Assembly: GCA_012295275.1 (NCBI GenBank)
Contig: CM022667.1
Coordinates: forward strand, 11,222,001 to 11,286,000
Direction of reading: 5' to 3'
DNA: 64,000 nucleotides
Source of the DNA: Chrysomallon squamiferum
Taxonomy: Eukaryota; Animalia; Mollusca
Shown here: positions 1,584 through 48,901 of the stretch, piece after piece
Layout of the letters: every line of letters begins with the position of its first letter
How positions within the stretch are numbered: the stretch's first letter is position 1
The notes under the pieces: model-generated
Told to the model about the DNA's origin: nothing
What the model saw: only the letters and a program-made list of their open reading frames with translations
Database searches by the model: none
Program-made: the position numbers and the translations under genes

Positions 1584-1796
1584 TATGTGTGTGAATGGGG
1601 CAGGGTGCGAGAGAATCTGCTTGAAAGGGGGAAGGAGAGAGAGAGAGCGAAAGAGAGAGAAAGAAAGAGTGAGAAAAGCAAGTAAAATAGAAAATGGAAA
1701 CATTATTATAATTCATCTCGTTAAATCAATAATTAAAAGAAAATAAGAGAGAGAGAGACTTTTGCTTTGATTTTTACTGTAACTACATCAGCGCTG

Positions 1797-1996
1797 TGAC
1801 TCATGACGTCTGTTTTCATATATTTTTCCCGAACCGGCATGACCCCGACTGCGTCGATTAAAAGCAGTAATCCATGGAAATAAAAACAAAAGTTCTTTGA
1901 AAACATTTCTCAAACCCGGACACGCCTCGACAACCAATCAAACAAACATCCCGGATTAATGACCTCGGGGAAACGTCCTGTTTCGCCGCTATAAAA
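1797..1996 (+). promoter_or_regulatory. Proximal promoter of gene A: AP-1 site abutting a CRE-like site, CCAAT box, kB-like site, TATA box
   Basis: TGACTCA 1797-1803 directly followed by TGACGTC 1804-1810; CCAAT 1934-1938; GGGGAAACGTCC 1967-1978; TATAAAA 1990-1996, ~60 bp before the ATG. AP-1/CRE and TATA are conserved in paralogs B and C. Motif matches only. Confidence 0.6.
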
Positions 1997-2057
1997 AATG
2001 GAATCACGAAATTCGACAGACATTACCAAACCTTTCAACCCTCTTCGATTCGCAGTC

Positions 2058-2736
2058 ATGAAGGTTTTTCTTCTCATCGCCGCAGTTGTGTACGTCTGCA
2101 CTGCTGCGACTTCAACGACCACTACGGCTCCCGATGTTTCAACGAGCTCCGCCGATCCACAAGTGAATGACGTCAAAGACAAATCGGAACTGTATGACGG
2201 AATCGATCTGAATTCTTTGACGGAAAAGGAACTCGAGTTACTTGCTGATGCCGAAGATGAAGTATTTATCGGAGAGTTGGGTAAATTCTGTTAAATTTTT
2301 TTTTTCTTCTTCTTATCTTTTCTTTCTTGCTTTTTTTCTTTCTTTTTTTTTTTCTTTCTTACTTTGTTCTTGTTCTTTTTGATCCATGAATTTTGTAAAT
2401 GCTTAAAGACAACAATTTAAAAATCACTGAAAATCTTGGTACATGGGTAGTTGTAATACTGAATTCTTGCTGTTCTTGCTCTATAAATATCTACGGAAAG
2501 AGATTACTGAAGTAAAGAATCACGTGAGATGAAAACTGTAAAAAGAACATTCATGGTAGCCATCTTTCTTTCTTTCTTTGCTGTTGTTGTATTTGCTGTT
2601 ATGAAGATTATTGATGATGATGGTAGCTGGTGTTAATGTTATCATAATCATGATCACCGTTATCATTATTTAACTATTATTAGTATTATTATTGTTGTTG
2701 ACGTTCTAGTTGTTGTTGTTGTTGCAAGTATTATTA

Positions 2737-2792
<56 letters not shown>

Positions 2793-2829
2793 TTATTATT
2801 ATTATTTCTTTTTATTACTTTATTCTATT

Positions 2830-2860
<31 letters not shown>

Positions 2861-3121
2861 TTATTATTATGATTATTTGTTTTTCACAGACATCTGGGGA
2901 ATTAAAACGGGTCTGAAAGAGAAAGGGCGAAGAGAAAAACGGTGGATTTCTGCCCTCATGTCAATGGGCAGAGTCTTGTTCCGCGGAGCTTCAAGAGGAG
3001 CTCTTTCGAGAGGTTCAAAAAAACGTCTTACAAGACAGTACTATAAGCAAGGTAAATGAATGAATGAATAAATGAACTGTTGATATTATTATTGTTATTA
3101 TTATTATTGTTATTATTGTTA

Positions 3122-3171
<50 letters not shown>

Positions 3172-3917
3172 GGTGGTGGTGGTGTTAGTAGTATTAGTAT
3201 TAGTATTAGTAATAGTAGTAGTAGTAGTAGTAGTAGTAGTATAACAGTTACAGTTGTAGTAGCAGTAATAGCAGCAACAAACGTCGTAGAAGTACCAGGT
3301 GCAGCAGTGATGTTTATTCATTCATTTACTCATTTATTTATTTATACACAGTTCTAAATATAACCTATACTTAATGTAACGGTTGCTAACAGCAAACATC
3401 TGAAATCGTTAAATTCACTGACCAACGTCACAAACCTTAAATAGCAATTAAAGTTAGAAAATGTCTGAGATTATAAAATTCAACAGACAAATATAATGTA
3501 CGTATGCAAAATATTTTATGTAGAGTTTATTTTCCCTTCCTTAGTGTCTTTTTTTATTTTTATAAAATATTTCCTGTAACCAACTTAAACGCTCTGAGGT
3601 TTGTGAAACAGTAACATACAGAGACGCTCCTTTCACTATTCTAGGTCTACTAATATCATTTTTTACGGTTTTCTAATTGCCTCAGGGCTAAGCTGTGACG
3701 TGCATATGTAACATAAACCTTAGTTAATAAGCTTGTAACTCTTACTAGAGATCTAATGATATATCTTCCTACAGAAACAGGATGGGCTCTTTCAAACTGC
3801 TATAGCTTCTGATTTCCGTGTTTGTTAGACATAGCTGACACTGAATAAAATTTTTTTTATTTTATTTTTTTTATTTTTTTATTTATATAGAAGCAGTAGT
3901 AGCAGCAGCAGTAGTGA

Positions 3918-3960
<43 letters not shown>

Positions 3961-4028
3961 TGTTGGTTGTGTTATTGTTACTCTGGAAATGTATATACAA
4001 AACAAGCATAATGTACACGCAGATGTCC

Positions 4029-4070
<42 letters not shown>

Positions 4071-4463
4071 AACACAGGTCGCTTAGACATACGCGCACAC
4101 ACACACGAACACACATATACTCAACAATACACACACAAACGAATACAAAAGCACAAATTCTGTAATTCAGTATCTGTTTAGGACATTAAAGCAGAAGATT
4201 ACAATTTGAAAACATTGACTAAAAATAATTTCATTTATTATCCAGGTGGCTACCGAAGTGCTCTGCGTGACTTCAGCAGACTGAAGACTCAAGGAACGAA
4301 ACCGTTCACAGGCAACAATGGTCTCCGTGGATACACCGGGCGTATTGGAAACCACAAAGTTACCGTTCGTAACAGCAGCAGCAAAGGAATTCCCACCCTG
4401 GATATTCGTTCTCCCAGACCAGGAAAACACTCTTTTACAAGAAAATTTAGATACCAGAATTAG
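2058..4463 (+). CDS. Secreted prepro-protein paralog A (200 aa): signal peptide, acidic propeptide, furin site RREKR, 108-aa cationic mature protein with a CdiA-CT/polymorphic-toxin-like C-terminal domain; putative antimicrobial effector
   Basis: Exons 2058-2280, 2890-3051, 4246-4463; both introns GT-AG phase 1; frame open to TAG. Mature: WISALMSMGRVLFRGASRGALSRGSKKRLTRQYYKQGGYRSALRDFSRLKTQGTKPFTGNNGLRGYTGRIGNHKVTVRNSSSKGIPTLDIRSPRPGKHSFTRKFRYQN (25 K/R, 2 D/E). Same exon structure in B and C. The gene model is strong; the product call is motif recall plus inference. Confidence 0.85.
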
Positions 4464-4611
4464 AAAGAGACGGACTTTGAGAAATCAGCAGAAATGATTG
4501 AAAATATCGGTTAAAAAAACAAAATTTATAATGACCAAATTAGTGTTTGTGATACGAAACGTTCAGGACCTCGATTATCAACATCCACATCGATTTCTTT
4601 TCCCTTTTGTT

Positions 4612-4643
4612 CTATCTATCTATATTTCTATCTATCTATATAT

Positions 4644-4738
<95 letters not shown>
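4612..4738. repeat. (TCTA)n microsatellite in the 3' flank of gene A
   Basis: Visible tetranucleotide run; source of the spurious SIYL-repeat ORF at 4498-4782. Confidence 0.95.
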
Positions 4739-4739
<1 letters not shown>

Positions 4740-4862
4740 TATTATTATTATTATTATTATTTTAAAATTACTGTTGTGGTAACTATACAAAATAAATACT
4801 GAAACTGAAATTTTGTTTGTTTGTTTGTTTGTGAGAGAGAGAAACAGAGAGAGAAATAGAGG

Positions 4863-4950
<88 letters not shown>

Positions 4951-5539
4951 AACAGAGAGAGAGAGAGAGGAGTACTGTATGAATAAAAATTTATTTTAAC
5001 GAAATCGTTAGTCTGTTTTGACCATTTGTTTTCCTGTTTTTTCTTTTTAATTCTCTCTTTCCTGTTTGTGTGTGAAAACGAAAACATTGTGTCGCTCTCT
5101 ATCTTTTTGTTCTTATGCTCTTTGTATTTGATCTATATTTAGTTTTAAACCAGTCTGACTTGCAATAAATTAATATTATTACATCTGCATCCATCCATTC
5201 ATTCATGCCTGGCTTCGCTTTGTCACCAACTAATTTATTATAGGTTTCATTTTAGACGATTTCTATCTAATAAAGCTGCGTATCTCTTATTTAACATACA
5301 GTTATCTTTTTTTTTACCTGTGTAGTGTGCGAAGCCCATCCCGTCCCCACCCTCCCAAAGAAACAAGAAATAAACAACAAAAAACAGGTGTTCTGTTCTC
5401 GTATTAACTTTTCTAAGACGTTTATCGCTACAAACAAAATAATTATTTCTAATACAGCAAAATATCATCTGACTGATAATAACGATTCAAACACACGGCT
5501 GTGGACTAACTACCTCACTGTTTAGGCTAAATCATTCAA

Positions 5540-5587
<48 letters not shown>

Positions 5588-5720
5588 GTACTAGTAGTAG
5601 AAGTAGTAGTGGCAGACCATTTCTCACAGCCAGTTGCAATCGATACTATTAGTAATATGTGTTTATTTATTCATTTATTTATTTATTTCAACTTTTTTTT
5701 TTTTTTTTTTTTTTACTGCA

Positions 5721-6136
5721 TTTAACTTTATTGACATAATCGCGTAAAATTCCGTTGTAAATATGTAAGAAAAACATTTGTCGACTTCAACAACTCCTGT
5801 AACAACCAGTCATCTTCGGCTGCTCTCAAAACAGGAGGTTTATTTCCCACAAATCAAAAATCATGCTGGTCACAAGGCAAGGGAGATTACTCTGTATCAC
5901 CTCAATCTGTGGAGACCAGAGTTATCGGTCTTAGACTTCCAGAATATTCGTTTAATCCAAACAACACAAACTCATCGTCGACAACAGATGCTGAATACGT
6001 GAATTACGCACTTTATCTGCGCAGACTGATGTTTATTTTGGCTTTCTTTGGACTTTATCTCTTCATTATTGCCGCATTTATTTCTTTGCAGATCGAGCGG
6101 AACAAGCTAGAGAGTATCAGTAAAATAAATGTATAA
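5721..6136 (+). pseudogene. Orphan terminal-exon-like ORF with a C-terminal transmembrane helix, copy 1
   Basis: Frame open 5735-6136, ending ...YLRRLMFILAFFGLYLFIIAAFISLQIERNKLESISKINV*. Preceded by a poly-T tract ending TGCAT (acceptor-like, but AT rather than AG). Has a 1-bp deletion near its start relative to copy 2 and no upstream in-frame ATG. Confidence 0.35.
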
Positions 6137-7136
6137 CGTTTTCTCCGTTTTGTTTGATTTATTTTCCTTTGCTTGGAATAAAGCTAATTCCGTTTATTAA
6201 GGGTTTTTGTAGAATCAAAACAAATCTATGGATCCAGAATTTTAGCTGTTATCGCGTAAATTCGACCTGGGCTTTTTATTCGTGTGCGTTAAAATGTGCG
6301 TCTTGGTATTTTATGAAATGAAGTAACAAAGATATTAACCTTTTATCATGCTGAATCATAATAAAATCTCTTATTTTCAAGGATTTTACTGATACAAACA
6401 AACAAGTAAGTAAAAAAGTAAAATTAAAACGAATTAATTTAAGGGGGTAAAAAATTAAAATAAGGATAATATTCCATCTTCAAAAATATATTGGGCATAT
6501 TGATGACTAAAGAATAGACTTGAAATGTTACTGGTTGCTGTTTCGGTTTATAGTGACAAAAGATTTATATAAGATAATACTTGAATAAAAGACGGGGTTT
6601 TTGGGGACGGTATTTCTTATGTGGTTTTTTTGTTTGTGTGTTTTTTTTTTGGTTTGTTTGTTGTTGTTGTTGTTGTTTTTTTTTGTTGTTTTTTCAGAGG
6701 TGATGGTTTGGCTTTATATAAGTTCACAAGTAAAAATGATAATTTTATGTTAACAGATACGGTGATGTATTAGATAGATACTAATAACTTGCATGAACGA
6801 CAAAGCCAAGACAAGCATGAACGAATGGATGCACGCAAATGTAATAATATTAATTTATTGGTAACCAAGCTTTCCACATTAAATAAATGTTGTTTAAAAC
6901 ATAGATCAGATAATGCTGATAACACTAGGGTACACACGTGTTGGTGTACACAGATAGAACAATGTTAATTTGTTGCTAATAAAAGGTCATTGAGCTGTAT
7001 TAGACAAATGATTAAAACTAAACTAATGTTCACACGAAAACGAGATCAACTACCTTGAAAATGTTGGTTTATATAACAAGACAGAAAAACACAAGTGCTG
7101 TGCTATTTATTTGAGGGTCAGTTGTCAGAAATTCTG

Positions 7137-7810
7137 TTACTCTGGTTTTATGGTGTATCTGAAACTATGGAGTTCAAGATCAGGCAGGACTTTAAATCTC
7201 TGAATCTCTGTTTCTGGCCTTCGGTTTGCAAGTGACCAAAAATAAGCTCCGTCCACATAAAGCGTGTATTTCGTACCCACACATCTCACTGTTACACTAA
7301 ACAGCGTATCGAGGCTGAACGGAAACAGTTCCACTTCTTCCTTAATTTCAGACAGTTCTGTGTGAACAATTTTCCGAGTTGTAAAATCAATGACCAGCTG
7401 GAAGACACTCTCACCGGAATTCCCAAGCAAAGCGAAACCGAAAGTAGTGTTCAACCGTTGTACACCGGTCATTTCAAATTCCGTGGAAGTCGTCATATGA
7501 CAGGGCAACGGTTGACCAGATTCTGGCAAAGACGTCCACGTCCACGTCATGTTGGAACATTCGTCGTCAAAGTCCTCCCAGTATCCATTTTCTGAGCACG
7601 TAATCATTAAGACGTTACGACCGCAGAAGGAGTAACCGTCGACACAGACGTACGTTGCAGTAGACTCTGGAATCAGTGACGTGTAGTGAACAGACGAAAA
7701 GGGAACTGTTGACGGTCTGTCACACAAGATCTTCGTCAAGCACGTCGTGTCCTTTTCAAACGAACCTTCTCGTTCGTTTCCCGAGTCCTGATGCTCTGAC
7801 ACGATCCTTC
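7137..7810 (-). pseudogene. 5'-truncated intronless gene: sushi/CCP domain plus galectin-like beta-sandwich domain
   Basis: ORF 7137-7802 has CDRPSTVPFSSVHY...ATYVCVDGY...ITCSENGYWEDFDDEC (sushi Cys/Trp pattern), then ...FPFSLDTLFSVTVRCVGTKYTLYVDGAYFWSLANR (galectin-like FPF...F...VDG pattern without the HxNxR sugar motif). About 400 bp carrying the start codon, signal peptide and PAN domain (present at 14800-15200 in copy 2) is deleted at ~7810. Confidence 0.7.
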
Positions 7811-8085
7811 TTATATTTCTTATATTTCCAGTTAAAGCTATGTTTTATTTAGAAGGGCGGATTACTTTCTTTGTACCAGTGTTGAAGATCGAACGAACAT
7901 TTGTGAAGAAATGTCCACTAAGCTGGTAGCATAATGAGACTGAAATATGTGGACATAAAAATTTATTTTGTTAAATAAAAAATAGGTTTTTCTAATGAGT
8001 TTGCTAAAAAAAATTTTAAAAATTACACACAAACTATTAATTTTTATATTTTTATTATGTGCAGTAACCAAAATAGTCATTTCAA

Positions 8086-8148
<63 letters not shown>

Positions 8149-8291
8149 CAAAGTGGACAAGTGGGAAAATACATATTGATGTTGATGGTCGATGTGCTGA
8201 ACGCTTCGTATCACAAACGCTTATTTCGTCATTATAATACTGCTTCTAACCCATATTTTCAGTTATTTCTGCTGATTTCTCTTTTTAATTG

Positions 8292-10774
8292 TTAATATCT
8301 GATTTTTCTGACGGTGGATCCGCCGCCTCGTCTGGGAGAACGAATTTCCAGGGTGGGTCTTCCGTTGCTGCTGCTGTTACGAACGGTAACTCTGTGGTTT
8401 CCCATACGTCCGGTATATCCACGGAGACCATTGTTGCCTCTGATCGGTTTCGTTCCTTGAGTCCTGAGTCTGCTGAAGTCACGCAGAGCACTTCGGAAAC
8501 CACCTGGATGATAAAATAAATTATTTTTAATTAATGTTTTCAAATTGTAACTTTCAGTTTTGCGTGTACATTATACTTGTTTTCTATATACAGCAATAAC
8601 TATTACTAGTGCCACCGCCTCTAGTACTACTACTGCTTCTCTATAAATCAATAAATCAATAAATATATAAATAAGTAAATAAATAAATAAATAAATTAAT
8701 AAACAAACAAACAAACAAACAAATAAATAAATAAATAAACGAACAAACAAACAAATAAAGAAAGATGTATCATTAGATCTCTGGTAAGAGTTACAAACTT
8801 ATTAACTAAGGTTTATGTCACATTTGCACGTCATTGCCTAGCCCTGAGGGAAGCAGGAAACAGTAAAACATGTTTGTGGACCTGGAAATGTCAAAGGAGC
8901 CTCTCTGTATATTACTGTTTCAAAATCATCAAAGCGTCTAAGTTGTTTCAAAAAAAAAAAAAAAAAAAAAAAAAAATAGACCTTGAGTACACTCTGAATA
9001 AAATAATTTGCATAAGCACATTAAACCAAACAGAAAAATGTTTCTTGAATTTTATAACCTAAGAGTTTCTAATTGTAACTGCTACTGAAATGTTTGTGAC
9101 GTTCGTGAATGAATTTGACGGTTTCAGGTTTTTACTGTTAGCAACTGTTTTATTAAGTATAGGTTACATTTAATACTGTGTATAAATAAATAAATGAATA
9201 CATAAATAAATAAACACTAGCAGCATCTGCTATTACTACGACTACTATTACTGCTACTACTAGTTCTGTTACTGCTAATACTATCACGACAACGACAACA
9301 ACAATCATACCACTACGCTTCCTGGACTTGGTCAAACACTAAGGTCATGACAACTGAACGATGGGTCACATTTGTTTTGGTAAACACACACACACACACG
9401 TCTGGTGGTTTGCTAAGTTATGTTGGAAACTGGCGCACGAAGCGAAAGTAAACCTAGCTAGACACGTATTACAAAGCTATGCATGGTTGTAATATTTATA
9501 AGAAAATGTTAGCTGCTGGCATTTATTACATTCATTCATAGTTATACGTATGTTAGGATATACTTTATTCTCTCTCGCTTTACTTCTTTTATTTTATTTT
9601 ATTTTTTTCGAATTATTATTACTATTACTACTACTACTACTATTATTACTATTATTATTAGTATTATTATCATCATCGTTATTATTATTATTATTGTTGT
9701 TGTTGTTATTATTATTATTATTATTATTATGATTATTATTATTATTATTATTAATCTAAACCAAGAAAATTGTCACTAAATTACATCCAGACATACACAC
9801 ACACTTTCATTCATCCATTCATTCATCCATCCGTCAATTCCTTCATTCATTCCTTCGTTCACTTACCTTGCTTAGCGTAATGTCTGGTAAGACGAGCTCC
9901 ACTTCTTGTGATACCTTTTCTTATAGCTCCACGCAGCAGGGCTCTGCCGATTGCCATAACAAGTGGAACCCAGCGTTTTGGTCTTCGTACCTTATCTTTG
10001 AGAGCGGCTTTAATTCCCCAAACGTCTGTGAAAAACAAATAATAATAATAATAATAACAACAACAAAAACAACAACAACAACAAGAAACACACAACATCA
10101 ACAACAATAATAATAATAATAGTTAAGTAATGCTAAATGGTGATGATGATTACGATAACGTTAACGACAGTTACACTCATCATCAACATCTTCATAACGA
10201 CAAATACAACAACAGGAAAGATAGACGGCTAATGTGAATATTATTTTACAGATTTCCTATCACGTGATCCTTTACTTCAGTAATCTCATTATGTAGATAT
10301 TTATAGAGCAAGAACCCATACACACACATGTACCTAGATTTTCAGTTCTTGTTAGAATGGTTTTAATTTTAAATTATAGTTAGAATGGTTTTAATTTTAA
10401 ATTATTGTTTTTTAAGCATTTAAAAAATTCAAGAAACGAAAAGGAGAAGAAGACGAAAAAGAAGCAAGGAAGAACGAAAGAAAGAAAGGAAAAGAAACAA
10501 ACAAACAAACAAACAAAGAAAAGATAAGAGAAAAAATATAACAGAACGTACCCAACTGTCCGATAAATTCTTCATCTTCGGCATCAGCAAGTAACTTGAG
10601 TTCCTGTTCCGTCAAAGTATTCAGATCGATTCCATCATGAAGTTCCGATTTGTCTTTGACGTCATTCACTTGTGGATCGGCGGAGCTCGTTGAAACATCG
10701 GGAGCCGTGGTGGTCGTTGAAGTCGCAGCAGTGCAGATGTACACAAATGCGGCGATGAGAAGAAAAATCTTCAT
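8292..10774 (-). CDS. Secreted prepro-protein paralog B (197 aa): furin site RRPKR, 105-aa cationic mature protein with a CdiA-CT-like domain
   Basis: Exons 10552-10774, 9867-10025, 8292-8503; GT-AG phase-1 introns. Mature: WVPLVMAIGRALLRGAIRKGITRSGARLTRHYAKQGGFRSALRDFSRLRTQGTKPIRGNNGLRGYTGRMGNHRVTVRNSSSNGRPTLEIRSPRRGGGSTVRKIRY. Confidence 0.85.
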
Positions 10775-10835
10775 GACTGCGAATTGAAGAGGGTTGAACA
10801 GTTTGGTAATGTCTGTCGAATTTCGTGTTTTCTTT

Positions 10836-11035
10836 TTTTATAGCGGCGATACAGGACGTTTCACCGAAGTCATTAATCAGAGATGTTTGTTTGACTGGTT
10901 GTCGAGTTGTGTCCGGGTTTGACAAATGTTTCCAAGAAAACTTTTGTTTTTATTTCGATGGATTACTGCTTTTAATCGACGCAGTCAGAGACATGCCGGT
11001 TCGGGAAAATATGTGAAAAGAGACGTCATGAGTCA
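10836..11035 (-). promoter_or_regulatory. Proximal promoter of gene B (TATA and AP-1/CRE intact; CCAAT and kB-like sites mutated)
   Basis: TATAAAA on the minus strand at 10836-10842; GACGTCA-TGAGTCA 11022-11035. The kB-like site reads GGACGTTTCACC (GGACGTTTCCCC in A and C) and CCAAT has become CCAGT. Confidence 0.55.
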
Positions 11036-11286
11036 CAGTGCTGATGTAGTGACAGTAAAATAAAACTGTTTTAAAAACATACTGTGACAAGTCAAAGTGG
11101 TTTGAGAAAAGAGTTTTGGTATGACTAAGATATCTTTAAATCGAGTATTGTTGTTTTACGTCAGTTGAATTTTATTTTATTACTTGTTTTCTTTTTTCTT
11201 TTCTTTTGCATTATGTTCTTTTATTTGTTATTATTTTTCATTTAACAGGATGAACAGTATCATGTTTCCATTTTCCATTTTAATTG

Positions 11287-11365
<79 letters not shown>

Positions 11366-12679
11366 TAAAAAATAATAAAAAATTGTTTTTCTTTCATTTT
11401 CTTTTTCTTTCAGTTATTTTTCATTGACTGCTTCAGCGATTTCTACAGCCAATCTAACACGTTGTTCTACTATAACAGTTACTGTAACTACAACAGCAAC
11501 GACTACAGTAATATCTACTTACTCAGTGTTTCCTTAATTCTGCCGTAATGTTTCAAATTACTTAATTTCTTCTTCTTTACCCCTCTCAAATAAATGGTGC
11601 TATTATTAATAATCCTTCTGTTAATACAATTACTGCTACTACTACTGCTACTACTACTACTATTACTGCTGCTGCTGCTACTACTACTTCTGCTGCTACT
11701 ACTACCACTACTACCATCATGACTTCTATTACTTATTACCTCTTGTACCTTTACTAACTTTTATTATTACACCTACTACTACTACTGCTACCATACTACC
11801 GCAACCACCTCCACTACTAATAGCAATACTACTACCGATTATATTATTACTGTTTATACTACTATTAAAGGAACAACAACTACTACTACTACTTCTACTG
11901 TCAGCACTTACACATTATGACTGTTACTTCCACTGCCATTGCTCTAGTTACCACAACTACTATTGTTACCATTTTCAACTACTACTACTACTACAAGCCA
12001 ACACCAATGGGACTTTTACTACTATTACTGCTATTATTAATAAATATTATGAACACAAATTATTTTGACGAAACGGTGACAAAGCATATTGTTATTTTTT
12101 TTTCTTACTGTACCTCTCTCTTTCCTGTTTTAATTTGTATTTTCTGTCTTTGTCTCTGTCTCCTTGTTGTAAGTTTGTGTGTGTGTGTGTGTAAAAACTG
12201 TTTAATGGTGTTGCTCTGAATGTTTTTTTCTTATGCTCTATGTATTTGATTTATATTTTGTTTTAAACCCGTCTGACTAGCAATAAATTAATATTATTAC
12301 ATCTGCGTGCATCCATTCATTCATGCGTGCCTTCGCTTTGTCACCAACTAATTTATTATCGGTTTCATTTTAGACGATTTCTATCTAATAAAACTGTGTA
12401 TCTCTTAATTAACATACAATGTTCAGTTTTACCTGTGTAGTATGCGAAGCCCATCCCATGCCTACCCACCCGAAGAAACAAGAAAAAAAAAAAAAATAAA
12501 AAAATAAAAAAAACAGGTGTTCTATTTACTTTTCAAATTAAGTTTTCTAAGACGTTTATCTGACTGATAATAACAAACAAAATAATTATTTCTGATACAG
12601 CAAACTATCATTTGATGATAATAAAGATTGAAATGACATTTTTGTGCTGCTATTATTCTTATTTTGTGGACTAACAACA

Positions 12680-12763
<84 letters not shown>

Positions 12764-12867
12764 GTACTAGTAGTAGAAGTAGTAGTAGCAGACCATTTCT
12801 CACAGCCAGTTGCAATCGATACTATTACTAATTTATTTATTTCATCTTTTTTTTTCTTTTTACTGCA

Positions 12868-13281
12868 TTCAACTTCATTGACGATAATCGCGTAAAATTC
12901 CGTTGTAAATATGTAACAAGCACATCTGTCGACTTCAACAACTCTTGTAATAACCGGTCATCTTCGGCTGCTCTCAAAACAGGAGGTTTATTTCCCACAA
13001 ATCAACAATCATGCTGGTCACAAGGCAAGGGAGACCACTCCGTATCACCTCAATCTGTGGAGACCAGAGTTATCGGTCTTAGACTTCCAGAATATTCGTT
13101 TAATCCAAACGACAAAAACTCGTCGACATCAAATGCTGAATACGTGAATTACCCGCTTTATCTGCGCAGACTGATGTTTATTTTGGCTTTCTTTGGACTT
13201 TATCTCTTCATTATTGCCGCGTTTATTTCTTTGCAGTTCGAGCGGAACAAGCTAGAGAGTATCAGTAAAATAAATGTATAA
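12868..13281 (+). pseudogene. Orphan terminal-exon-like ORF with a C-terminal transmembrane helix, copy 2
   Basis: Frame FNFIDDNRVKFRCKYV...YLRRLMFILAFFGLYLFIIAAFISLQFERNKLESISKINV* is open for ~137 codons. Differs from copy 1 by substitutions, an in-frame 3-bp indel and one extra base near the start. Upstream pyrimidine tract ends in TGCAT. Confidence 0.35.
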
Positions 13282-14229
13282 CGTTTTCTCCTTTTTGTTT
13301 GATTTATTTTCCTTTGCTTGGAATAAAGCTAGTTCCGTTTATTAAGGGTTTTTGTAGAATCAAAACAAATCTATGGATCCAGAATCTTAGCCGTTATCGC
13401 GTAAATTCAACCTGGGCTTTTTATTCGTGTGTGTTAAAATGTGCGTCTTGGTATTTTATGAAATGAAGTAACAAAGAAATTAACCTTTTATGATGCTGAA
13501 TCATAATATAATCTCTTATTTTAAGGATTTTACTGATACAGACAAACAAGTAAGTAAAAAAGTAAAATTAAAACGAATTAATTTAAGGGGGTAAAAAATT
13601 AAAATAAGGATAATATTGCATCTTTAAAAATGTACTGGGCATATTGATGACTAAAGAATAGACCTGAAATATTACTGGTTGCTGTTTCGGTTTATAGTGA
13701 CAAAAGACTTAAATAAGATAATACTTGAATAAAAGACGGGGATTTTTGGGGACGGTATTTCTTATATGTTGTTTTAGTTTGTGTGTTTTTTGTTTTTGTT
13801 TGTTTGTTGTTGTTTTTTTGTGTTTTTTTCAGAGGTGGTGGTTTGGGTTTATATAAGTTCACAAGTAAAATTGATAATTTTATGTTAACAGATACGGTGT
13901 TGTATTAGATAGATACTAGTAACTTGCATGATCAACAAAGCCAAGACAAGCATGAACGAATGGATGCACGCAGATGTAATAATATTAATTTATTGTTAAG
14001 CAAGCTTCCCACATTAAATAAATGTTGTTTAAAACATAGATCAGATAATGCTGATAACACTAGGGTACATACGTGTTGGTTATGCAGATAGAACAGTGTT
14101 AATTTTTGTTAATAAAAGGACATTAAAAGGATACTAATGTTCATGCGACAAAAACGAACAGTTTTGAAAATGTTGGTTTAATGTAACAAGACAAAAAGAC
14201 AAATGCTGTGCTATGTATTTCAAGTCGTT

Positions 14230-15066
14230 AGAAATTCTGAAACCTGGTTTTATAGTGTTCAACTGTGGAGTTCAACACCGGTCTTTTTCAAATTCCGTCG
14301 AAGATGTCATAGGACATAGGGCGTGTATTTCGGTTGACCAGATTACACTGGCAAAGACGTCGGAAACAGTTCCACGTCATGTTGGAACATTCGTCGTCAA
14401 ATTTTCCCAGTAAAATCAATAACCAGCTGGAGCACTCTAACCGGAATTAAGCAAAGCGAAACCGAAAGTAGTATTCAACCGTTGTATACCGGTCATTTCA
14501 AATTCCGTCGAAGACGTCATAGGACAGGGCAGCGGTTGACCAGATTCTGGCAAAGTCGTCCACGTCCACGTCATGTTGGAACATTCGTCGTCAAAGTCCT
14601 CCCAGTATCCGTTTTCTGAACACGTAATCATTAAGATGTTGAACAGACGAAAAGGGAATCAGTGACGTGTAGTGAACAGACGAAAAGGGAACTGTTGACG
14701 GTCTGTCACACAAGATCTTCGTCAAGCACGTCGTGTCCTTTTCAAACGAACCTTCTCGTTCGTTTCCCGAGTCCTGCTGCTCTGACACGATCCTTCTGTA
14801 CACCTGAAACTGCTGTTTGTTGTCCTCATTTCTGAATACAAAAACCTGCAGTCAACGGATTCGTTTGCGTAGCATTGTTTCGATCGTTTATCCAGAATGA
14901 CTACTTTGCACGCTAGCGAACTGAAGCACTCGACTGCACAACGTATGGCCATTCCATTCATTTCCTTAAGTCCTCTGTTTTCATTCAAGGAATGAGAGCT
15001 GTCTACACTGACCATAAGAACAAAAAGATGCATAGGAAAACTACGTAGAAAGTTTCTTCCGTCCAT
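14230..15066 (-). pseudogene. Disrupted intronless gene: signal peptide, PAN/Apple-like domain, sushi domain, scrambled galectin-like domain
   Basis: ATG 15066 MDGRNFLRSFPMHLFVLMVSVDS..., then RCAVECFSSLACKVVILDKRSKQCY (PAN-type C-x3-C...C...C). Frameshift near 14850, deletion with a duplicated filler at ~14635-14660, interleaved/scrambled 3' part at 14230-14450. Confidence 0.7.
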
Positions 15067-15966
15067 GTTATCGAGGAGTTGGCCAAAAACGGAATTTTAA
15101 TAACGAAGTTAAATCATCCAACTTAAATACTCGACAGAAATACTGAGTCAGTTTAATATTGATGAGATGAAGAAACTGATACGGGTCTACGAATTAGAGA
15201 AGATTTATATTTCCATTTAAAGCAATGTTTTATTTACAATGGCCGATTACTTTATGTGTACCAGTATTGACGATCGAACGTACATTTGTGAAGATGTGTC
15301 CATTAAGCTGGTAGCATAATGAGACTGAAATATGTGGACATAAACATTTATTTTGTTAAATAAACAATAGGTTTCTCACACACGCACACTTACCAGAATG
15401 AAATACAGTCAAAGCCAGAAAAAATAAAATAAAAAAATAAAATAAAATAAAATAAATGAAAGGGAGAACAAGAAAAAAATGAGAGAGGATTAGTAAAAAA
15501 AAAAAGAAAAACGATTTCGTCAAAATAATTTTTTTATCATACAGTTCTCTTTTCCTGTCTTATTATTATATTTGTTTTTCTTTAGTTTCCCTGTTTTCTG
15601 TAAACATTTCAAAAACTAGAAGAAGAATTTAGACAAATCACATTGTCTTGTCTTTTTATTACGTGTAACTGAAATAATAAATATAAAATAAAAAACACGT
15701 TTCTTTTCCTTCTACTTTTTATTTGAATCATAAAATGATTCTACTCTATAAACAAAGTATGCATGTTATAAGTGCTAAAAAAAAAAAAAAAGAGAAAAAA
15801 ATACAAACAAACAAAACATTACTCTACTCTAAAATTACAAGTATGCATATAATGAGATAGCTAAAAAAAAAAAAAAAAAAAAAAAAATAAAAGCAATTAC
15901 AAACAAAATATTAATTTTGAATTTTTTATTTTCTGCAGTAACCAAAATAGTCATTTTAAAATAATG

Positions 15967-16034
<68 letters not shown>

Positions 16035-16190
16035 TAATAATAATAAAGAAAGTGGACAAATGGGAAAATACATATTGATGTTGATAATCAATGTCCTGAA
16101 CGCTTCATATCACAAACGCTTATTTCGTCATTATAATACTGCTTCTGACCCATATTTTCAGTTATTTCTGCTGATTTCTCTTTTTAATTG

Positions 16191-16566
16191 TTAATATCTG
16201 ATTTTTCTGACGGTGGATCCGCCGCCTCGTCTGGGAGAACGAATTTCCAGGGTGGGTCTTCCGTTGCTGCTGCTGTTACGAACGGTAACTCTGTGGTTTC
16301 CCATACGTCCGGTGTATCCACGGAGACCATTGTTGCCTCTGATCGGTTTCGTTCCTCGAGCCCCGAGTCTGCTGAAGTCACGCAGAGCGCTTCGGTAGCC
16401 ACCTGGATGATAAATTAAATTATTTTTAGTTAATGTTTTCAAATTGAAGCTTTGTTTTGATGTCCTAAACAAATACTAAAGTATTGAATTTGTCTGCGTG
16501 TTTGTATGTTTCTATTCGTATATCTGTGTATTGTTGAGTATATATGTGTATCTAAGAGACTTGAGG

Positions 16567-16608
<42 letters not shown>

Positions 16609-16697
16609 GACATCTGGATGTAAATTATGCTCGTTTTGTATATACAGCTACAGCTACTACAAATAGTACTACAGCCTCTACTACCAGTGTCTCTACT

Positions 16698-16749
<52 letters not shown>

Positions 16750-17666
16750 GCTACTAGTACTGCTTCTAAATAAATAAAATAAAATAAAATAAACAAAACT
16801 TTATTCATGTCAGCTATGTCTAACAAACACGGAAATCAGAAGCTACAGCAGTTTAAAAGAGCCCATCCTCGTTGTACAGGAAGATATATCATTAGATCTC
16901 TAGTAAGAGTTACAAGCTTATTAACTAAGATTTATGTTACATATGCACGTCACAGCCTAGCCCTGAGGCAATTAGAAAACCGTAAAAAAGGATATTAATA
17001 GACCTAGAATAGTCAAAGGGGCGTCTCTGTATATTACTGTTTCAAAAACCTCACATAAATAAATAAATAAATGAATATACACTACTGCAGCGTCTACTAT
17101 TGCTCTTACTGTTATCGCTACTACTACCACAGCTATTAGTACTGCTACCACTAACAACAACAACAACAACAATAATAATAATAATAATAACTACGCCTGT
17201 TTGAAACCCCTCTACAAACACGTCTAGATTCGCCTCTGATAATAATATTGAAGTATCAGATCGGCATTGCTCTCTACAGGTCGACAAATCGTAGACATTT
17301 AACTGGTTTTTTTTTTTCACTCTGGAGCTGAACTCACGTTCGCATGAAGTGCACAACCTAAATCTCTTAACTGAAGGCAAACACAGATGATTCACTTGTC
17401 TAAGATGCTAATTGAGAAATCTTAAAGATATCACCGCATGGACACATTTTCTTTCAACCTGATGTGAACCGGAATAGCTACCGCTTCCATTCTATTTATA
17501 GCAAGGGCGAGCAATTCCGTTACTTTTCCGTTTGATGTAATTTCCACCCTGATCGTTGCCTAAACGTGACCACTACGCTTCCTGGACTTGGTCAAAGACT
17601 AAGGTCGTGTCGTCTCGGTCTGTGACCTTATTGACACTGAACGATGGGTCACGTTTGTTTTGGTAA

Positions 17667-17697
<31 letters not shown>

Positions 17698-18106
17698 TGG
17701 TGGTTTGCTAAGTTATGTTGGAAACTGGCGCACGAAGCGAAAGTAAACCTAGCTAGACACGTATTACAAAGCTATGCATGGTTGTAATATTTATAAGAAA
17801 ATGTTAGCTGCTGGCATTTATTACATTCATTCATAGTTATACGTATGTTAGGATATACTTTATTCTCTCTCACTTTACTTCTTTTTTTTTCTCTTGTTTT
17901 TCGAATTATTATTACTATTACTACTACTACTACTATTATTACTGTTATTATTATTATTATTGTTATTAGTAGTAGTAGTAGTAGTAGTAGTATTTTTTCA
18001 ACTATTACTATTACTGCTACTACTCCTACTATTATAACTACTATTATTACTACTGGTATTATTATCATCGTCGTTGTCGTCGTCATTATTATTATTATCA
18101 TTATTA

Positions 18107-18159
<53 letters not shown>

Positions 18160-18486
18160 GTTGTTGTTGTTATTATTGTTATTATTATCATTAGTCTAAC
18201 TCAAGTAATCTGTCATTAAATCACATCCAGATATATACACGCACTTTCATTCATCCATTCATTCATCCATCCGTCAATTCATTCATTCATTCATTCGTTC
18301 ACTCATTTACCTTGCTTAACGTAATGTCTGGTAAGACGAGCTCCACTTCTTGTGATACCCCTTCTCACAGCGCCGCTTAGCAGGGCTCTGCCGACTGCCA
18401 TAGCAACTGGAACCCACCGTTTTGGTCTTCGTACCTTATTTTTAAGACCGGCTTCAATTCCCAAAAGGTCTGTGAAAAACAAATAA

Positions 18487-18542
<56 letters not shown>

Positions 18543-19091
18543 TAATAATAATAATAATAACACGTGATATGAACATTATTTTACATATTCATATCACGTA
18601 ATTCTTTACTTCGTTTAATCTCCTTTCATCGATATTTACAGAACAAGAACAGTTGAACTATTCATGTTACAAACACATACACACATGTACCTAGATTTTC
18701 ACTCATTGTCAGAAAGGTTTTCATTTTAAATTATTGTTTTTAAGCATATAGAAAATTCAAGGAACGAAAAGCAGAAGAAGAAAGAACCAAAGAAAGAAAG
18801 AAAGGAAAGAAAAGAAAGAAAGAAAGAAAGAAAAGAACAAAAAAGAAATAATCTATAACAAAACGTACCCAGTTGTCCTACAAATTCTTCATCTTCGGCA
18901 TCAGCAAGTTCCTCGAGTTCCTTTTCCGTCAAAGTATTCAGATCGATTCCGTCATGAAGTTCCGATTTGTCTTTGACGTCATTCACTTCTGGATCGGCGA
19001 AGCTCGGAGAAACATCGGGAGCGGTGGTGGTCGTTGAAGTCGCAACAGTGCAGACGTACACAACTGCGGCGATGAGAAGAAAAACCTTCAT
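16191..19091 (-). CDS. Secreted prepro-protein paralog C (197 aa): furin site RRPKR, 105-aa cationic mature protein with a CdiA-CT-like domain
   Basis: Exons 18869-19091, 18311-18469, 16191-16402; GT-AG phase-1 introns. Mature: WVPVAMAVGRALLSGAVRRGITRSGARLTRHYVKQGGYRSALRDFSRLGARGTKPIRGNNGLRGYTGRMGNHRVTVRNSSSNGRPTLEIRSPRRGGGSTVRKIRY. Confidence 0.85.
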
Positions 19092-19150
19092 GACTGCGAA
19101 TCGAAGAGGGTTTAAAAGTTTGGTAATGTCTGTCGAATTTCGTGTTCCTT

Positions 19151-19349
19151 TTTTATAGCGGCGAAACAGGACGTTTCCCCGAGGTCATTAATCAGGGATG
19201 TTTGTTTGATTGGTTGTCGAGTTGTGTCCGGGTATGAGAAATGTTTTCAAAGAACTTTTGTTTTTATTTCCATGGATTACTGCTTTTAATCGACGCAGTC
19301 GGGGACATGCCAGGTGGGAAAAATATGTGAAAACAGACGTCATGAGTCA
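19151..19349 (-). promoter_or_regulatory. Proximal promoter of gene C (TATA, kB-like site, CCAAT, AP-1/CRE)
   Basis: TATAAAA on the minus strand at 19151-19157; GGACGTTTCCCC 19169-19180; ATTGG ~19209; GACGTCATGAGTCA 19336-19349. A distal full CRE TGACGTCA at 20281-20288 is also present at 1040-1047 for gene A. Confidence 0.6.
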
Positions 19350-19752
19350 CAGTGCTGATGTAGTGACAGTAAAATAAAAGTGTTTTAAAAACATGCTGTG
19401 TCATCTCACAGTCATTTGGGAAAAGAGTTTTGGTATGACTAAGATATCTTTAAATCGAGTATTGTTGTTTTTACGTCAGTTGAATTTTGTTTTATTACTT
19501 GTTTAGTACTTTTGTTTTCTTTTTTTCTTTTCTTTTCTTTTCCTTTATTTTCTTTTATGTTATTTTATTTTATTTTAATTATTGATTTAACGAGATGAAC
19601 AGTATCATGTTTCCATTTTCTATTTTACTTGCTTTTCTCACTCTTTCTTTCTCCTTGTTCTCTCTCTCTCACTCGCACTCTTTATTTCTCTCTCCCACTG
19701 TCGCACTCTCTCTCTCCCTCCCCTTTCACGCACATTCTCTCGCTCCCTACCC

Positions 19753-32596: not shown

Positions 32597-40917
<8,321 letters not shown>

Positions 40918-43816: not shown

Positions 43817-43884
<68 letters not shown>

Positions 43885-44403
43885 AAAGAAAGAGAGATCC
43901 ATATTCTTTCTTTTAATCATTCATTTATTCTTCCTTCTTTTAATCATTCATTTATTCTTCTTTCTTTCGCTCATTCATTCATTCATTCCCTCTTTATTTT
44001 TTCTTCTGTCTTCCAGGTTTTATCATTTATAGCATTTTGCTGCGTGGCGTCAGCTAGGATTGAATATTGTGACAAACATTTCGGTGGAAGCACGTACAAC
44101 TTCTTCGAATTCGTGTCCATCTCGTGTTTCATCGCTTTTACCATCTTATATGTGCTGTATCTTACCACACTTCACACCAAACTTTTCTTCCAGATGATAC
44201 CTTGGTTACTGATAGTAAGTGTGTGTAGCCGTATCAGTCATATTAATTTTAGAACGGTTCCGCTTGTAACGACATTGTCACAGAATTAGAAAGATTAGGC
44301 GAATCAGTCGTTGTAATGATAGTTGCAATGTATGAAAAAGAATAATTATATATATATATATATAAATATAAATATATAGTGTTTAGTATCAGTTTTAGAG
44401 TAA

Positions 44404-44449
<46 letters not shown>

Positions 44450-44741
44450 CATATATATATATATATATAAAATACTATTATTCTAAAAAAATACTATGAT
44501 TGTTTGTAATTTCTTTCTTTCTATCTTTATATTTTTTTATTTATTTTATATTATTTTATTTATTTTGTTGTTCTTTGTTTGAATTTTTGTTTGTTTATAT
44601 TTGTTTGTTTATTTATTTATTTGTTTGTTTGTTTATCAGGACCTCGGTTCGTGTGGTGTCTATGTGGTACTGTACTTCATCTCATCAATCGTGTTAGCTA
44701 CCAAAACTTGTTATGACAGTGGAAATAGAGCTGGAGCGGTG

Positions 44742-44830
<89 letters not shown>

Positions 44831-45206
44831 CATCATCATTAATATTATAATTGTTGTTGTTGATGTTGTTGTTATATTGTTATTGTTATTATTATCGTTA
44901 TCATCATCATCGTTATTATTATCATTGTTGTTGTTGTTGTGGTTATTAATGTTATCATCATCACCATCATCAGCTTCATTCTCATCTAACAGTAACTCGA
45001 AATTCAGTTCATAATCATTGTAAAGATAAATTATTATTTATTAATTTTATTTATTTATTTATTTATTCGAGGCTTTCGGCTTCTTCGCGATGTTCGCAAT
45101 TTGTGGAAAGGGATATTTTTCATTTCGAACCTGGTGGGACGCAAGACAAGGAGCAGGCAAGGACGCGAGATCGATAGAACCAGACTATGATCCGGATAAA
45201 TACTGA
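43636..45206 (+). CDS. MARVEL-domain four-TM protein (CMTM/plasmolipin-like, 188 aa)
   Basis: Exons 43636-43770, 44017-44214, 44640-44738, 45072-45206; all phase 0. FAKSIEGILLALIAVLSFIAFCCV...NFFEFVSISCF...IPWLLIDL...YFISSIVLA...AGAAFGFFAM are typical MARVEL helices. The last acceptor is GAG. Confidence 0.88.
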
Positions 45207-45850: not shown

Positions 45851-46359
45851 TTCTGATATATTAAAACGCGAGTTTAACTATGACGTGACGTTGATATTCC
45901 ATAAGTAAACTACAAATGACGACAGTATTCTGTGAGTAAGAGAAAACGTAACGTTCCGAGGATTCCTTGACTGAAGCTAAGGTTTCGTTTGTTCTGTAAG
46001 TAAAACTAATAGGGTATTGCTTATTCTATGAAAAGTTTACCAATAAACTAGGATGATATTTCGTATTTCTTGAATGTTTTGTAAGTTGCTCTAAAACGGT
46101 TTTGCGTATTCTTTGAATATTTTTTTTTTTGGACCTTAACATGGGGTTGTGAATACTTTGAGTAAAATAAATCTTCATACAGAGGCTCCGCAGATAATTC
46201 TCAACAATATGTTAAAAACCGAACGTTGAAATGGCTTTATTTAGTTTGCGACTTAATACTGAAAGTTAACGTTCAAATGATATTATTTTGCAAGTTACAT
46301 TTGAAATGGAATTACTCATTTTGCGAGTCTACGTTAAAATGTCTTTAACCATTCTTAAA

Positions 46360-46770
46360 GATAAAGTCGAAACGTCTTCACAGTCTAAAAGTTAACGTTG
46401 AAATGTCTTCAGTCGTTCTAAAAGTTAACGTTGAAACGTCTTTAATCGTTCTAAAAGTTAACGTTGAAACGTCTTCAGTCATTCTAAAAGTTAACGCTGA
46501 AATGTCTTTAATCGTTCTAAAAGTTAACGCTGAAACGTTTTTAATCGTTCTAAACGTTAACGTAACGTCTTTAATCGTTCTAAAAGTTAACGCTGAAACG
46601 TTTTTAATCGTTCTAAAAGTTAACGCTGAAACGTTTTCAATCGTTCTAAACGTTAACGCTGTAACGTCTTTAATCGTTCATAAAAGTTAACGCTGAAACG
46701 TTTTTAATCGTTCTAAATGTTAACATTGAAACGTCTGTAATCGTTCTGAAAGTTAACGTTGAAACGTTTT
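46360..46770. repeat. 33-bp minisatellite, ~12 copies (degenerate copies back to ~46210)
   Basis: Unit TTCTAAAAGTTAACG(T/C)TGAAACGT(C/T)TTTAATCG, head to tail with no unique spacers; begins immediately after the stop codon of the kringle gene. Confidence 0.9.
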
Positions 46771-46773
46771 TGG

Positions 46774-48188: not shown

Positions 48189-48252
<64 letters not shown>

Positions 48253-48652
48253 TGTAAAATTGCAGTAAGCAGGATATACGTATGTCGGGGTTTTCGGTCT
48301 GTATATTGCGCTTTTCACAGAATGACGTAACAAACCATCACACGGCGGAATCCCGCACGTTTCCCATCTGACACTGGGTTCTGTCGTGTAACAAAACGGA
48401 ACGCCCGTGCGCTCAGGGTCCCGGCAGAAGTTTTCAGACGCAGTCAACGACGTGTCCGGAAATGTGGCGACGTCGATGTTGTTGTGTTGGTGGGGACGTT
48501 GCTCGTCCCATCTCTGGCACGTCAGGCCTGTTATCGTTGTTCGTTTCTTTCCGGAATAAACAGACTCGGTACCGTTGGAAACGTCGAAACATTGGTCTGT
48601 ACATACAGAACAACAGAAGCAATAATAATAATAATATATAATAATAATAGTA

Positions 48653-48708
<56 letters not shown>

Positions 48709-48861
48709 TGTTATTTCCATATTAAACGAAATTTAGAAGTTTAATATTATTGCAATGAAACCGTATCAGGTAAATCATATTTACTTACACCTTTTCTTTA
48801 TTTCTTTCTTTCTTCATTAATTTTTATACTGAATTTAAACCTCTATCTCAATATCTATCTC

Positions 48862-48901
<40 letters not shown>

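Follow-up and report, generated by a model that had tools for sequence, protein, structure and literature searches.

A 64,000-nucleotide stretch of the genome of the mollusc Chrysomallon squamiferum (assembly GCA_012295275.1, contig CM022667.1, positions 11,222,001 to 11,286,000, forward strand), here called the window, contains three paralogous genes, g1, g2, and g3, whose products combine an animal-type secretory precursor with a core domain homologous to the C-terminal toxin domains of bacterial polymorphic toxins. The reading favored here, at slightly better than an even chance, is that these spliced mollusc genes encode a secreted, convertase-activated antibacterial protein built from an S8-VOC2-like domain that was probably acquired once.

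Splicing joins the predicted exons of each gene into an open frame, giving intact three-exon paralogs of 200 (g1), 197 (g2), and 197 (g3) amino acids. On the forward strand, exon 1 of g1 (2058..2280) encodes the signal peptide and most of an acidic propeptide with a conserved DG-x-D-L...EL..L..AED motif, exon 2 (2890..3051) encodes the end of the propeptide, an REKR site, an amphipathic cationic helix, and the first strand of the toxin-like core, and exon 3 (4246..4463) encodes the S8-VOC2-like, toxin-like core itself and terminates in RKFRYQN-stop. Genes g2 and g3 lie on the reverse strand, with the signal peptide and acidic propeptide in exon 1 (10552..10774 in g2 and 18869..19091 in g3), an RPKR site, amphipathic helix, and first core strand in exon 2 (9867..10025 and 18311..18469), and a toxin-like core ending in RKIRY-stop in exon 3 (8292..8503 and 16191..16402). 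All six introns are bounded by GT...AG, all are in phase 1, and they interrupt the three genes at identical codon positions (after codon 74 and codon 127/128). The convertase-type sites fall at residues 89-92 (REKR in g1, RPKR in g2 and g3), separating acidic pro-regions (16 to 19 D/E versus 6 or 7 K/R) from Cys-free mature parts of 108, 105, and 105 amino acids with net charges of +23, +23, and +22. The signal peptides were assigned by eye from the hydrophobic N terminus and from homologues. These splicing, intron, and charge checks bear out the layout proposed in a preliminary description of this DNA, namely, three intact secreted-type paralogs with an acidic propeptide, an R-x-K-R site, and a Cys-free cationic mature part, and on that layout the products would very probably be secreted and processed. 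The C-terminal motif string given in the same description occurs in all three proteins, with slight deviations in g1 (D for E and F for I), and a profile search of the 64-kb window found exactly three copies of the domain.

Assembled RNA contigs were compared in 4 of 22 RNA runs, the shares in runs X2-X19 being small. A single 664-nucleotide contig from run X1 joins the three predicted exons without intron sequence (record positions 1-223, 228-385, and 386-664). At all 29 listed differences from g2 this contig has the g3 sequence, and the numbers of differences in each exon (8, 19, and 16) fit those between g2 and g3, so the contig, which takes in all three exons of g3, represents spliced g3; the predicted junctions are confirmed for that gene only. 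A 297-nucleotide contig from run X21, of the same study as X1, spans the same exons. No g1- or g2-specific contig was seen in the runs examined, although contigs of this kind cannot show absence, level, or tissue. Contamination is excluded because the genes carry spliceosomal introns, are matched by a spliced RNA contig, and sit among exons for animal domains, in agreement with the eukaryotic integration claimed at the outset.

A profile built from the three core exons matched 40 proteins at an E value of ≤0.001 among 1.84 billion, compared with 6 found by a word-based search, and its weaker matches are the C termini of bacterial RHS and HINT proteins. One match, P0010, was a false hit to SprB repeats and was dropped. 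A second profile, made from nine bacterial C termini, found 152 proteins, of which 120 were listed; among the matches listed, the domain terminates RHS, PAAR, VgrG, PT-VENN (CdiA), MafB, PT-TG, PT-HINT, and haemagglutinin proteins. A structure search of the ESM Atlas likewise returned VENN, MafB, and CdiA clusters at template modeling scores of 0.88 to 0.94. A profile restricted to 49 bacterial rows scores the mollusc mature parts at 54.8 to 60.5 bits, whereas reversed sequences reach at most 1.0 and the best of 3,000 shuffles reaches 12.9; hhalign compares the mollusc and bacterial families with a probability of 99.6, and the mollusc cores share at best 42 to 44% identity with bacterial cores. 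Homology between the mollusc core and the bacterial toxin tip domain is therefore firm at the sequence level, and the relationship to CdiA/RHS-type C-terminal toxin domains, put forward in the preliminary description, now rests on profile scores against shuffles, hhalign, and bacterial architectures. What could be said for contamination, recent transfer, or chance similarity as the explanation is that the first bacterial matches had only modest raw E values, between 4e-5 and 7e-4 in a search of 1.8 billion proteins. That explanation is effectively refuted by the shuffle control and by homologues in 13 mollusc species, along with the introns, the spliced contig, and the animal neighbors (kringle, PH, MARVEL, and sushi/galectin).

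In the 10 distinct bacterial loci examined, the domain ends no more than 1 residue from the stop codon, and one conserved family of approximately 130 amino acids is encoded downstream on the same strand in all 10 (for example, L001:3453-3851 and L004:3427-3825; in L013 the gene is doubled in tandem). In two loci this downstream gene lies about 470 bases away. The family had no Pfam or PDB sequence match, and its position suggests a putative immunity protein in a toxin-immunity layout. The named loci are all from Bacillota; the mollusc profile matched 4 of 401 sampled genomes of this phylum. None of the delivery architectures (RHS, CdiA, MafB, VgrG, or HINT) is present in g1-g3, which have instead a signal peptide and an animal-only propeptide, and a search of the window with the immunity-gene profile gave a best match at an E value of 1.4 over 1,974 six-frame segments, indicating no adjacent cognate immunity gene.

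The core is predicted with high confidence (predicted local distance difference test score [pLDDT], 94) as a beta-alpha-hairpin-beta3 fold with elements E2-9, H12-21, E25-31, E37-43, E46-51, E60-66, and E72-80. In the description of Li et al. (2022, PMC9424270), the toxin domain S8-VOC2 is VOC-like, its helix is followed by a hairpin, it carries a predicted Arg-Ser-Lys-Lys surface cluster, and the CdiA-CT structure 5T86 belongs to a separate related family. The predicted mollusc model has the corresponding beta-alpha-beta-beta-beta core, its hairpin likewise inserted behind the helix, and glyoxalase/bleomycin-binding (VOC) proteins are among its structural neighbors (Z scores, 5 to 5.8). Many rows of the S8-VOC2 alignment in the supplement of that paper contain GG..A..DF, R..SS..G.PTLE, and KIRY. 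All three genes retain R169, S172, K194, and R196 (residue numbering here and below is that of g2), which by eye seem to agree with the S8-VOC2 consensus, although the active-site marks could not be assigned to columns of the published alignment. Judged by eye, from topology and visual comparison of the alignments, the mollusc core matches the uncharacterized S8-VOC2 family.

This assignment replaces the two CDD models named in the preliminary description. One of these, CdiA-CT_Ec-like, is presumably linked to PDB entry 5T86; that structure aligns with 76 of 82 residues of the core model (Z, 5.4; root mean square deviation, 3.6; 8% identity), tied with unrelated folds, and its motif set (R-x-D-Y/W-D...H) differs, with no profile match, so that any resemblance is at the fold level only. 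The other, CdiA-CT_5T87E_Ct (the C. taiwanensis CdiA-CT, 5T87), fails on sequence motifs, as its printed sequence has an H-G-H-V-R motif and none of the motifs of the core; its absence from the listed rows of the structural-neighbor searches carries little weight by itself. Salmonella Rhs2 was also rejected as a family member, since it has a different, Asp/His-based site. Searches of PDB sequences, made with one protein and with three profiles (E ≤ 10), returned just chance TPR or ribosomal rows, and Foldseek searches against the PDB and viral models gave nothing at an E value of ≤0.001, the RelE rows being nonsignificant (E ≥ 0.24). No His is common to the animal and bacterial rows, in a comparison with the His/Asp/Glu/Arg site of BECR ribonucleases. 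ESM Atlas feature matches to Ntox47, Ntox37, and Ntox21 scored at most 0.80 and are no more than leads, and a similarity of the full-precursor model to nucleotidyltransferases (Z, about 6) was taken as a common arrangement.

The animal members form a mollusc family that the preliminary description had missed. The closest match to the window genes is a protein of the neomphaline gastropod Gigantopelta aegis (85% over exon 3), and all 17 named eukaryotic rows are from molluscs, in 13 species: 9 gastropods (Gigantopelta, two Haliotis species, Bradybaena, Aplysia, Physella, Pomacea, Batillaria, and Littorina) and 4 bivalves (Sinanodonta, Ylistrum, Pinctada, and Saccostrea); a further 14 rows are of animal type. 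The prepro layout is common to all animal rows, with an R-x-K/R-R site in 30 of 34 and a dibasic site in the other 4. The net charge of the mature part ranges from +5 to +27 (almost all +10 to +27), and the N-terminal helix is amphipathic, with a hydrophobic moment of 0.5 to 0.9, in all animal rows but one. The named mollusc records examined are all annotated as uncharacterized, and Pfam scans of these homologues found no family for the domain. Two apparently mis-spliced proteins, P0034 and P0020, leave the family alignment about where the window introns lie, a hint that the introns may be common to the mollusc family. Tandem copies occur in Sinanodonta, Bradybaena, and probably Physella, as judged from adjacent locus numbers. 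In P0027 the segment with the convertase site and helix is duplicated and in P0026 the mature helix region is extended, which suggests that the N-terminal helix can vary or might be released as a separate peptide.

The phylogenetic tree comprised 94 rows (34 animal and 60 bacterial) and 93 columns and left out P0020, P0031, and P0034, which are partial or mis-spliced, and the near-copy members P0048-P0055 and P0191-P0198. The 34 animal rows fall on one side of a branch (support, 87/93; 91% of bootstrap trees), for which the SH-aLRT value is 100 after removal of two long rows; bivalve rows lie near the base of the animal side, with two bivalve/gastropod changes. The domain occurs in many bacterial toxin architectures with paired genes, and S8-VOC2 diversity is far wider in bacteria, whereas among named eukaryotes it occurs in molluscs only; the direction of transfer was therefore taken to be from bacteria to molluscs. 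A bacterial origin of the mollusc domain is highly probable, and horizontal acquisition, as originally suggested, is the most parsimonious origin, with the animal rows forming one branch. Since the family is common to gastropods and bivalves, the transfer was ancient and not specific to the Chrysomallon lineage; the sequences point to one likely event, before the gastropod-bivalve split. Endozoicomonas bacteria are associates of marine invertebrates, and proteins of theirs (P0043/P0059 and P0106), 684 to 737 amino acids long and one with ankyrin repeats, end in the domain. The tree does not place these proteins as the sister group of the animal rows, and no donor is named.

Some published rows may reflect separate histories. 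The S8-VOC2 alignment includes the eukaryote-type accessions XP_005091745.2 and CAF1484007.1, and the 5T86-family alignment includes CAF1157237.1 (PMC9424270). As printed there, XP_005091745 retains the bacterial PDG turn that is lost in the family of the window genes. The first accession is presumably an Aplysia protein, and we take the two CAF accessions to be from bdelloid rotifers. A second mollusc subfamily and further independent transfers may exist.

Several polar residues of the core are conserved almost without exception in the 34 animal and 60 bacterial rows: R169 (100% of animal and 100% of bacterial rows), S172 (97 and 100%), T178 (94 and 100%), E/D180 (100 and 100%), R196 (97 and 98%), and Y197 (91 and 98%). 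K194 is present in 97% of animal rows versus 55% of bacterial rows. The strand register (DSSP) of the predicted model suggests that the conserved polar residues share one face of the sheet. The median charge of the core is +11 in animals versus +4 in bacteria (P = 2e-11, with rows that are not independent).

The propeptide is an animal feature. Its profile matched animal proteins at an E value of <1e-5 and no bacterial protein below 0.004, and a single bacterial match of 10 bits was taken as chance. Derivation of the propeptide from an immunity protein is unsupported, the best E value among the open reading frames (ORFs) of the bacterial loci being 1.9. The propeptide is well ordered in a model of the whole Gigantopelta precursor (pLDDT of 84 to 97 over residues 51-90), and when the propeptide and mature part were predicted as separate chains, the pair scored 0.68 versus 0.01 for the best control, with runs agreeing in at least 89% of contacts and a partner pLDDT of at least 79. 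The mark applied to such predictions is reached by 51 of 78 solved pairs and 2 of 108 mismatched pairs; because two halves of one chain tend to pass, the result speaks for one folding unit and not for binding after cleavage. The predicted interface takes in 29 of 112 residues, including 4 of the 8 positions conserved in animals only, but no putative catalytic residue. Since it avoids these residues, the propeptide would more plausibly serve to chaperone the domain and mask its charge, and the model contradicts the idea of an immunity-like plug of the active site.

On the favored reading, the precursor would be cleaved at the R-x-K/R-R site. Before cleavage the acidic propeptide is predicted to pack on the helix-side face and N-terminal segment of the mature domain, where it would chaperone the domain and mask its charge on the way through the secretory pathway. 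The amphipathic helix and the raised positive charge could then bind and cross bacterial envelopes, replacing the RHS/CdiA delivery machine. In the last and weakest step, the R169/S172/T178/E180/K194/R196 cluster would act in the bacterial cytoplasm, where its likeliest target is RNA or the translation apparatus, in line with proposals for fold relatives. Taken separately, an antibacterial effector role is fairly likely, whereas action through the ancestral catalytic site may be put at somewhat less than even. The full scheme, in which a cytoplasm-acting toxin enzyme was rebuilt as a self-delivering immune effector that is masked by its propeptide, armed by furin-type cleavage, and carried into bacteria as an active domain by its helix, is offered only tentatively.

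A number of observations weigh against the favored reading. The structural neighbors of the core are middling (best Z, 5 to 6), and the domain is without a sequence match in the PDB or a family in Pfam or NCBIfam, against which the three core exons were scanned. S8-VOC2 is known computationally, and metal chelation rather than RNase activity was put forward for it (PMC9424270). The fold relative with a toxicity test, Rhs2, relies on Asp/His residues that are unconserved in the mollusc family. The predicted propeptide interface is without R175, S178, T184, E186, K200, R202, and Y203 (homologue numbering). Among the three paralogs the ratio of nonsynonymous to synonymous substitution is about 0.6, indicating weak constraint. 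The tree is unrooted, and its bacterial rows, thinned from 126 to 60 at 66% identity, carry a sampling bias, having been seeded from the matches nearest the animals. Finally, a T-K-G motif that precedes strand 1 in bacteria (85, 77, and 87% conserved) is replaced in animals, and that motif might have been catalytic.

The loss of the T-K-G motif bears as well on an alternative with the same origin, in which the protein is now a large cationic antimicrobial acting on membranes or polyanions (lipopolysaccharide or nucleic acid) and the fold serves as a scaffold, with catalysis lost or secondary. The high charge of the mature part, the amphipathic helix, and the acidic propeptide resemble antimicrobial peptide precursors, and exon 2 diverges fastest between paralogs (68 to 70% nucleotide identity between g1 and the other two versus 83 to 95% elsewhere). 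Strict retention of R169, S172, T178, E180, and R196 across gastropods and bivalves would be unexpected for a passive scaffold, and this alternative is considered unlikely, if worth keeping in view. Still less likely is that the domain now targets eukaryotes, be they parasites, fungi, predators, or egg predators, or has a nondefensive secreted role in mucus, shell, egg matrix, or signaling. Hormones and defensive toxins of animals are just as typically secreted and processed by convertases; the ancestral context, however, is interbacterial with paired immunity-like genes, the strong cationic drift and recurrent tandem expansion fit defense, and the family is also present in filter-feeding bivalves.

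Genes g2 and g3 with their flanks form a tandem duplication unit (5063..19400; about 5063-11350 versus 12180-19700 by self-BLAST, in blocks 81 to 97% identical), relative to which g1 is an inverted, older copy. The three proteins are identical at 146 to 170 of 197 positions. In the tree, the Gigantopelta paralogs fall apart, one grouping with g1 and the other with g2/g3 (support, 100/91 and 100/92), and because of this grouping the g1-g2 split may be older than the species, predating the Chrysomallon/Gigantopelta divergence, with gene conversion perhaps keeping exon 1 alike. A proximal upstream region is kept in all three genes (1758..2057 on the forward strand for g1; 10775-11074 and 19092-19391 on the reverse strand for g2 and g3), with TATAAAA at -66/-68 from the ATG and TGACTCA and TGACGT near -260/-252; this conservation may reflect merely recent duplication or gene conversion.

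Neighboring exons encode kringle, PH, MARVEL, and sushi/galectin domains (Pfam-type matches in 5 of 13 ORFs scanned). They include a PH-domain gene with long low-complexity exons (32600-38366, reverse strand), a MARVEL gene (43825-45000, forward strand), and a multikringle gene (48220-50440, reverse strand). Between g1 and g2, within the duplicated unit, an open frame of 235 codons (7137-7844, reverse strand) encodes sushi (E = 7e-6) and galectin-like (E = 4e-10) domains and is without a start codon at its 5' end; a second copy at about 14200-14800 is rearranged and partial. This lectin, adjoining putative effectors, may be immune related. A duplicated frame of about 135 to 150 codons (5735-6136 and 12832-13281, both forward strand) has a hydrophobic C-terminal stretch and no Pfam match and is probably an exon of a membrane protein. 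A tandem repeat at 46331-46771, with a period of about 33 bp by self-BLAST offsets, forms an open frame of repeated units without a Pfam match.

No description of the mollusc family, its architecture, or its origin was found in the literature searched, which consisted mostly of non-subscription papers without bioRxiv supplements; these three elements appear new, whereas the class of domesticated interbacterial toxins (Dae2) and the computationally named domain were known already. Few interbacterial toxins domesticated by animals have a demonstrated immune role, and one of them, Dae2, has the cell wall as its target. If the favored reading is true, the mollusc genes would be a further case, both old and widespread, found in snails and bivalves and among them in farmed animals (abalone, oyster, pearl oyster, and scallop). 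On the full scheme they would also be an unrecognized, class-spanning family of mollusc antibacterial enzymes and give a first functional handle on the VOC2 toxin fold. Because the ancestral domain probably acted within the cell it attacked, its adoption would have required the animal both to deliver the protein and to protect itself. Being short and Cys-free, the genes lend themselves to inexpensive testing, which would at the same time provide the bacterial VOC2 family with its first activity.

Among known systems, S8-VOC2 (PMC9424270) is the nearest, sharing with the mollusc proteins core topology, glyoxalase/VOC neighbors, and sequence motifs; its predicted Arg-Ser-Lys-Lys cluster may correspond to R169/S172/K194/R196. 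It is described there as a bacterial domain, and the main text makes no mention of molluscs, horizontal transfer, or Aplysia; the mollusc version adds a signal peptide, an acidic propeptide, a convertase site, and introns and has no immunity gene. The CdiA-CT of Escherichia coli A0 34/86 (5T86, "CdiA-VOC") and Salmonella Rhs2/Ntox47 are likewise polymorphic-toxin tips and may resemble the mollusc domain in overall fold. Rhs2, a 5T86-like Ntox47 toxin, poisons E. coli, binds EF-Tu, and is a proposed RNase, its nuclease activity having been inferred (bioRxiv 10.64898/2026.05.10.723254). Both differ in lacking a profile match (8% identity for 5T86) and in having R-x-D-Y/W-D...H in place of the R..S..T.E..K.R of the mollusc family. 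Precursors of cationic antimicrobial peptides with an anionic propiece have a signal peptide, an acidic propeptide, a convertase site, and a cationic amphipathic N terminus. The mollusc proteins share all of these, but their mature part is a Cys-free folded domain of 105 amino acids, of bacterial origin and with no Pfam match. As in the Dae2 proteins of ticks (bioRxiv 10.1101/2020.04.10.036376), an interbacterial toxin gene has been captured by an animal (very probably so in the mollusc case), the delivery apparatus is gone, and an immune use is proposed; toxin homology goes together with a patchy eukaryotic distribution (17 of 17 named rows from molluscs) and with eukaryotic features (introns, a signal peptide assigned by eye, and a transcript for g3 only). 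The Dae enzymes cut peptidoglycan outside the cytoplasm, with activity shown, whereas the mollusc domain is unrelated to them, probably acted in the cytoplasm, has a putative activity, and gained a propeptide and a cationic helix.

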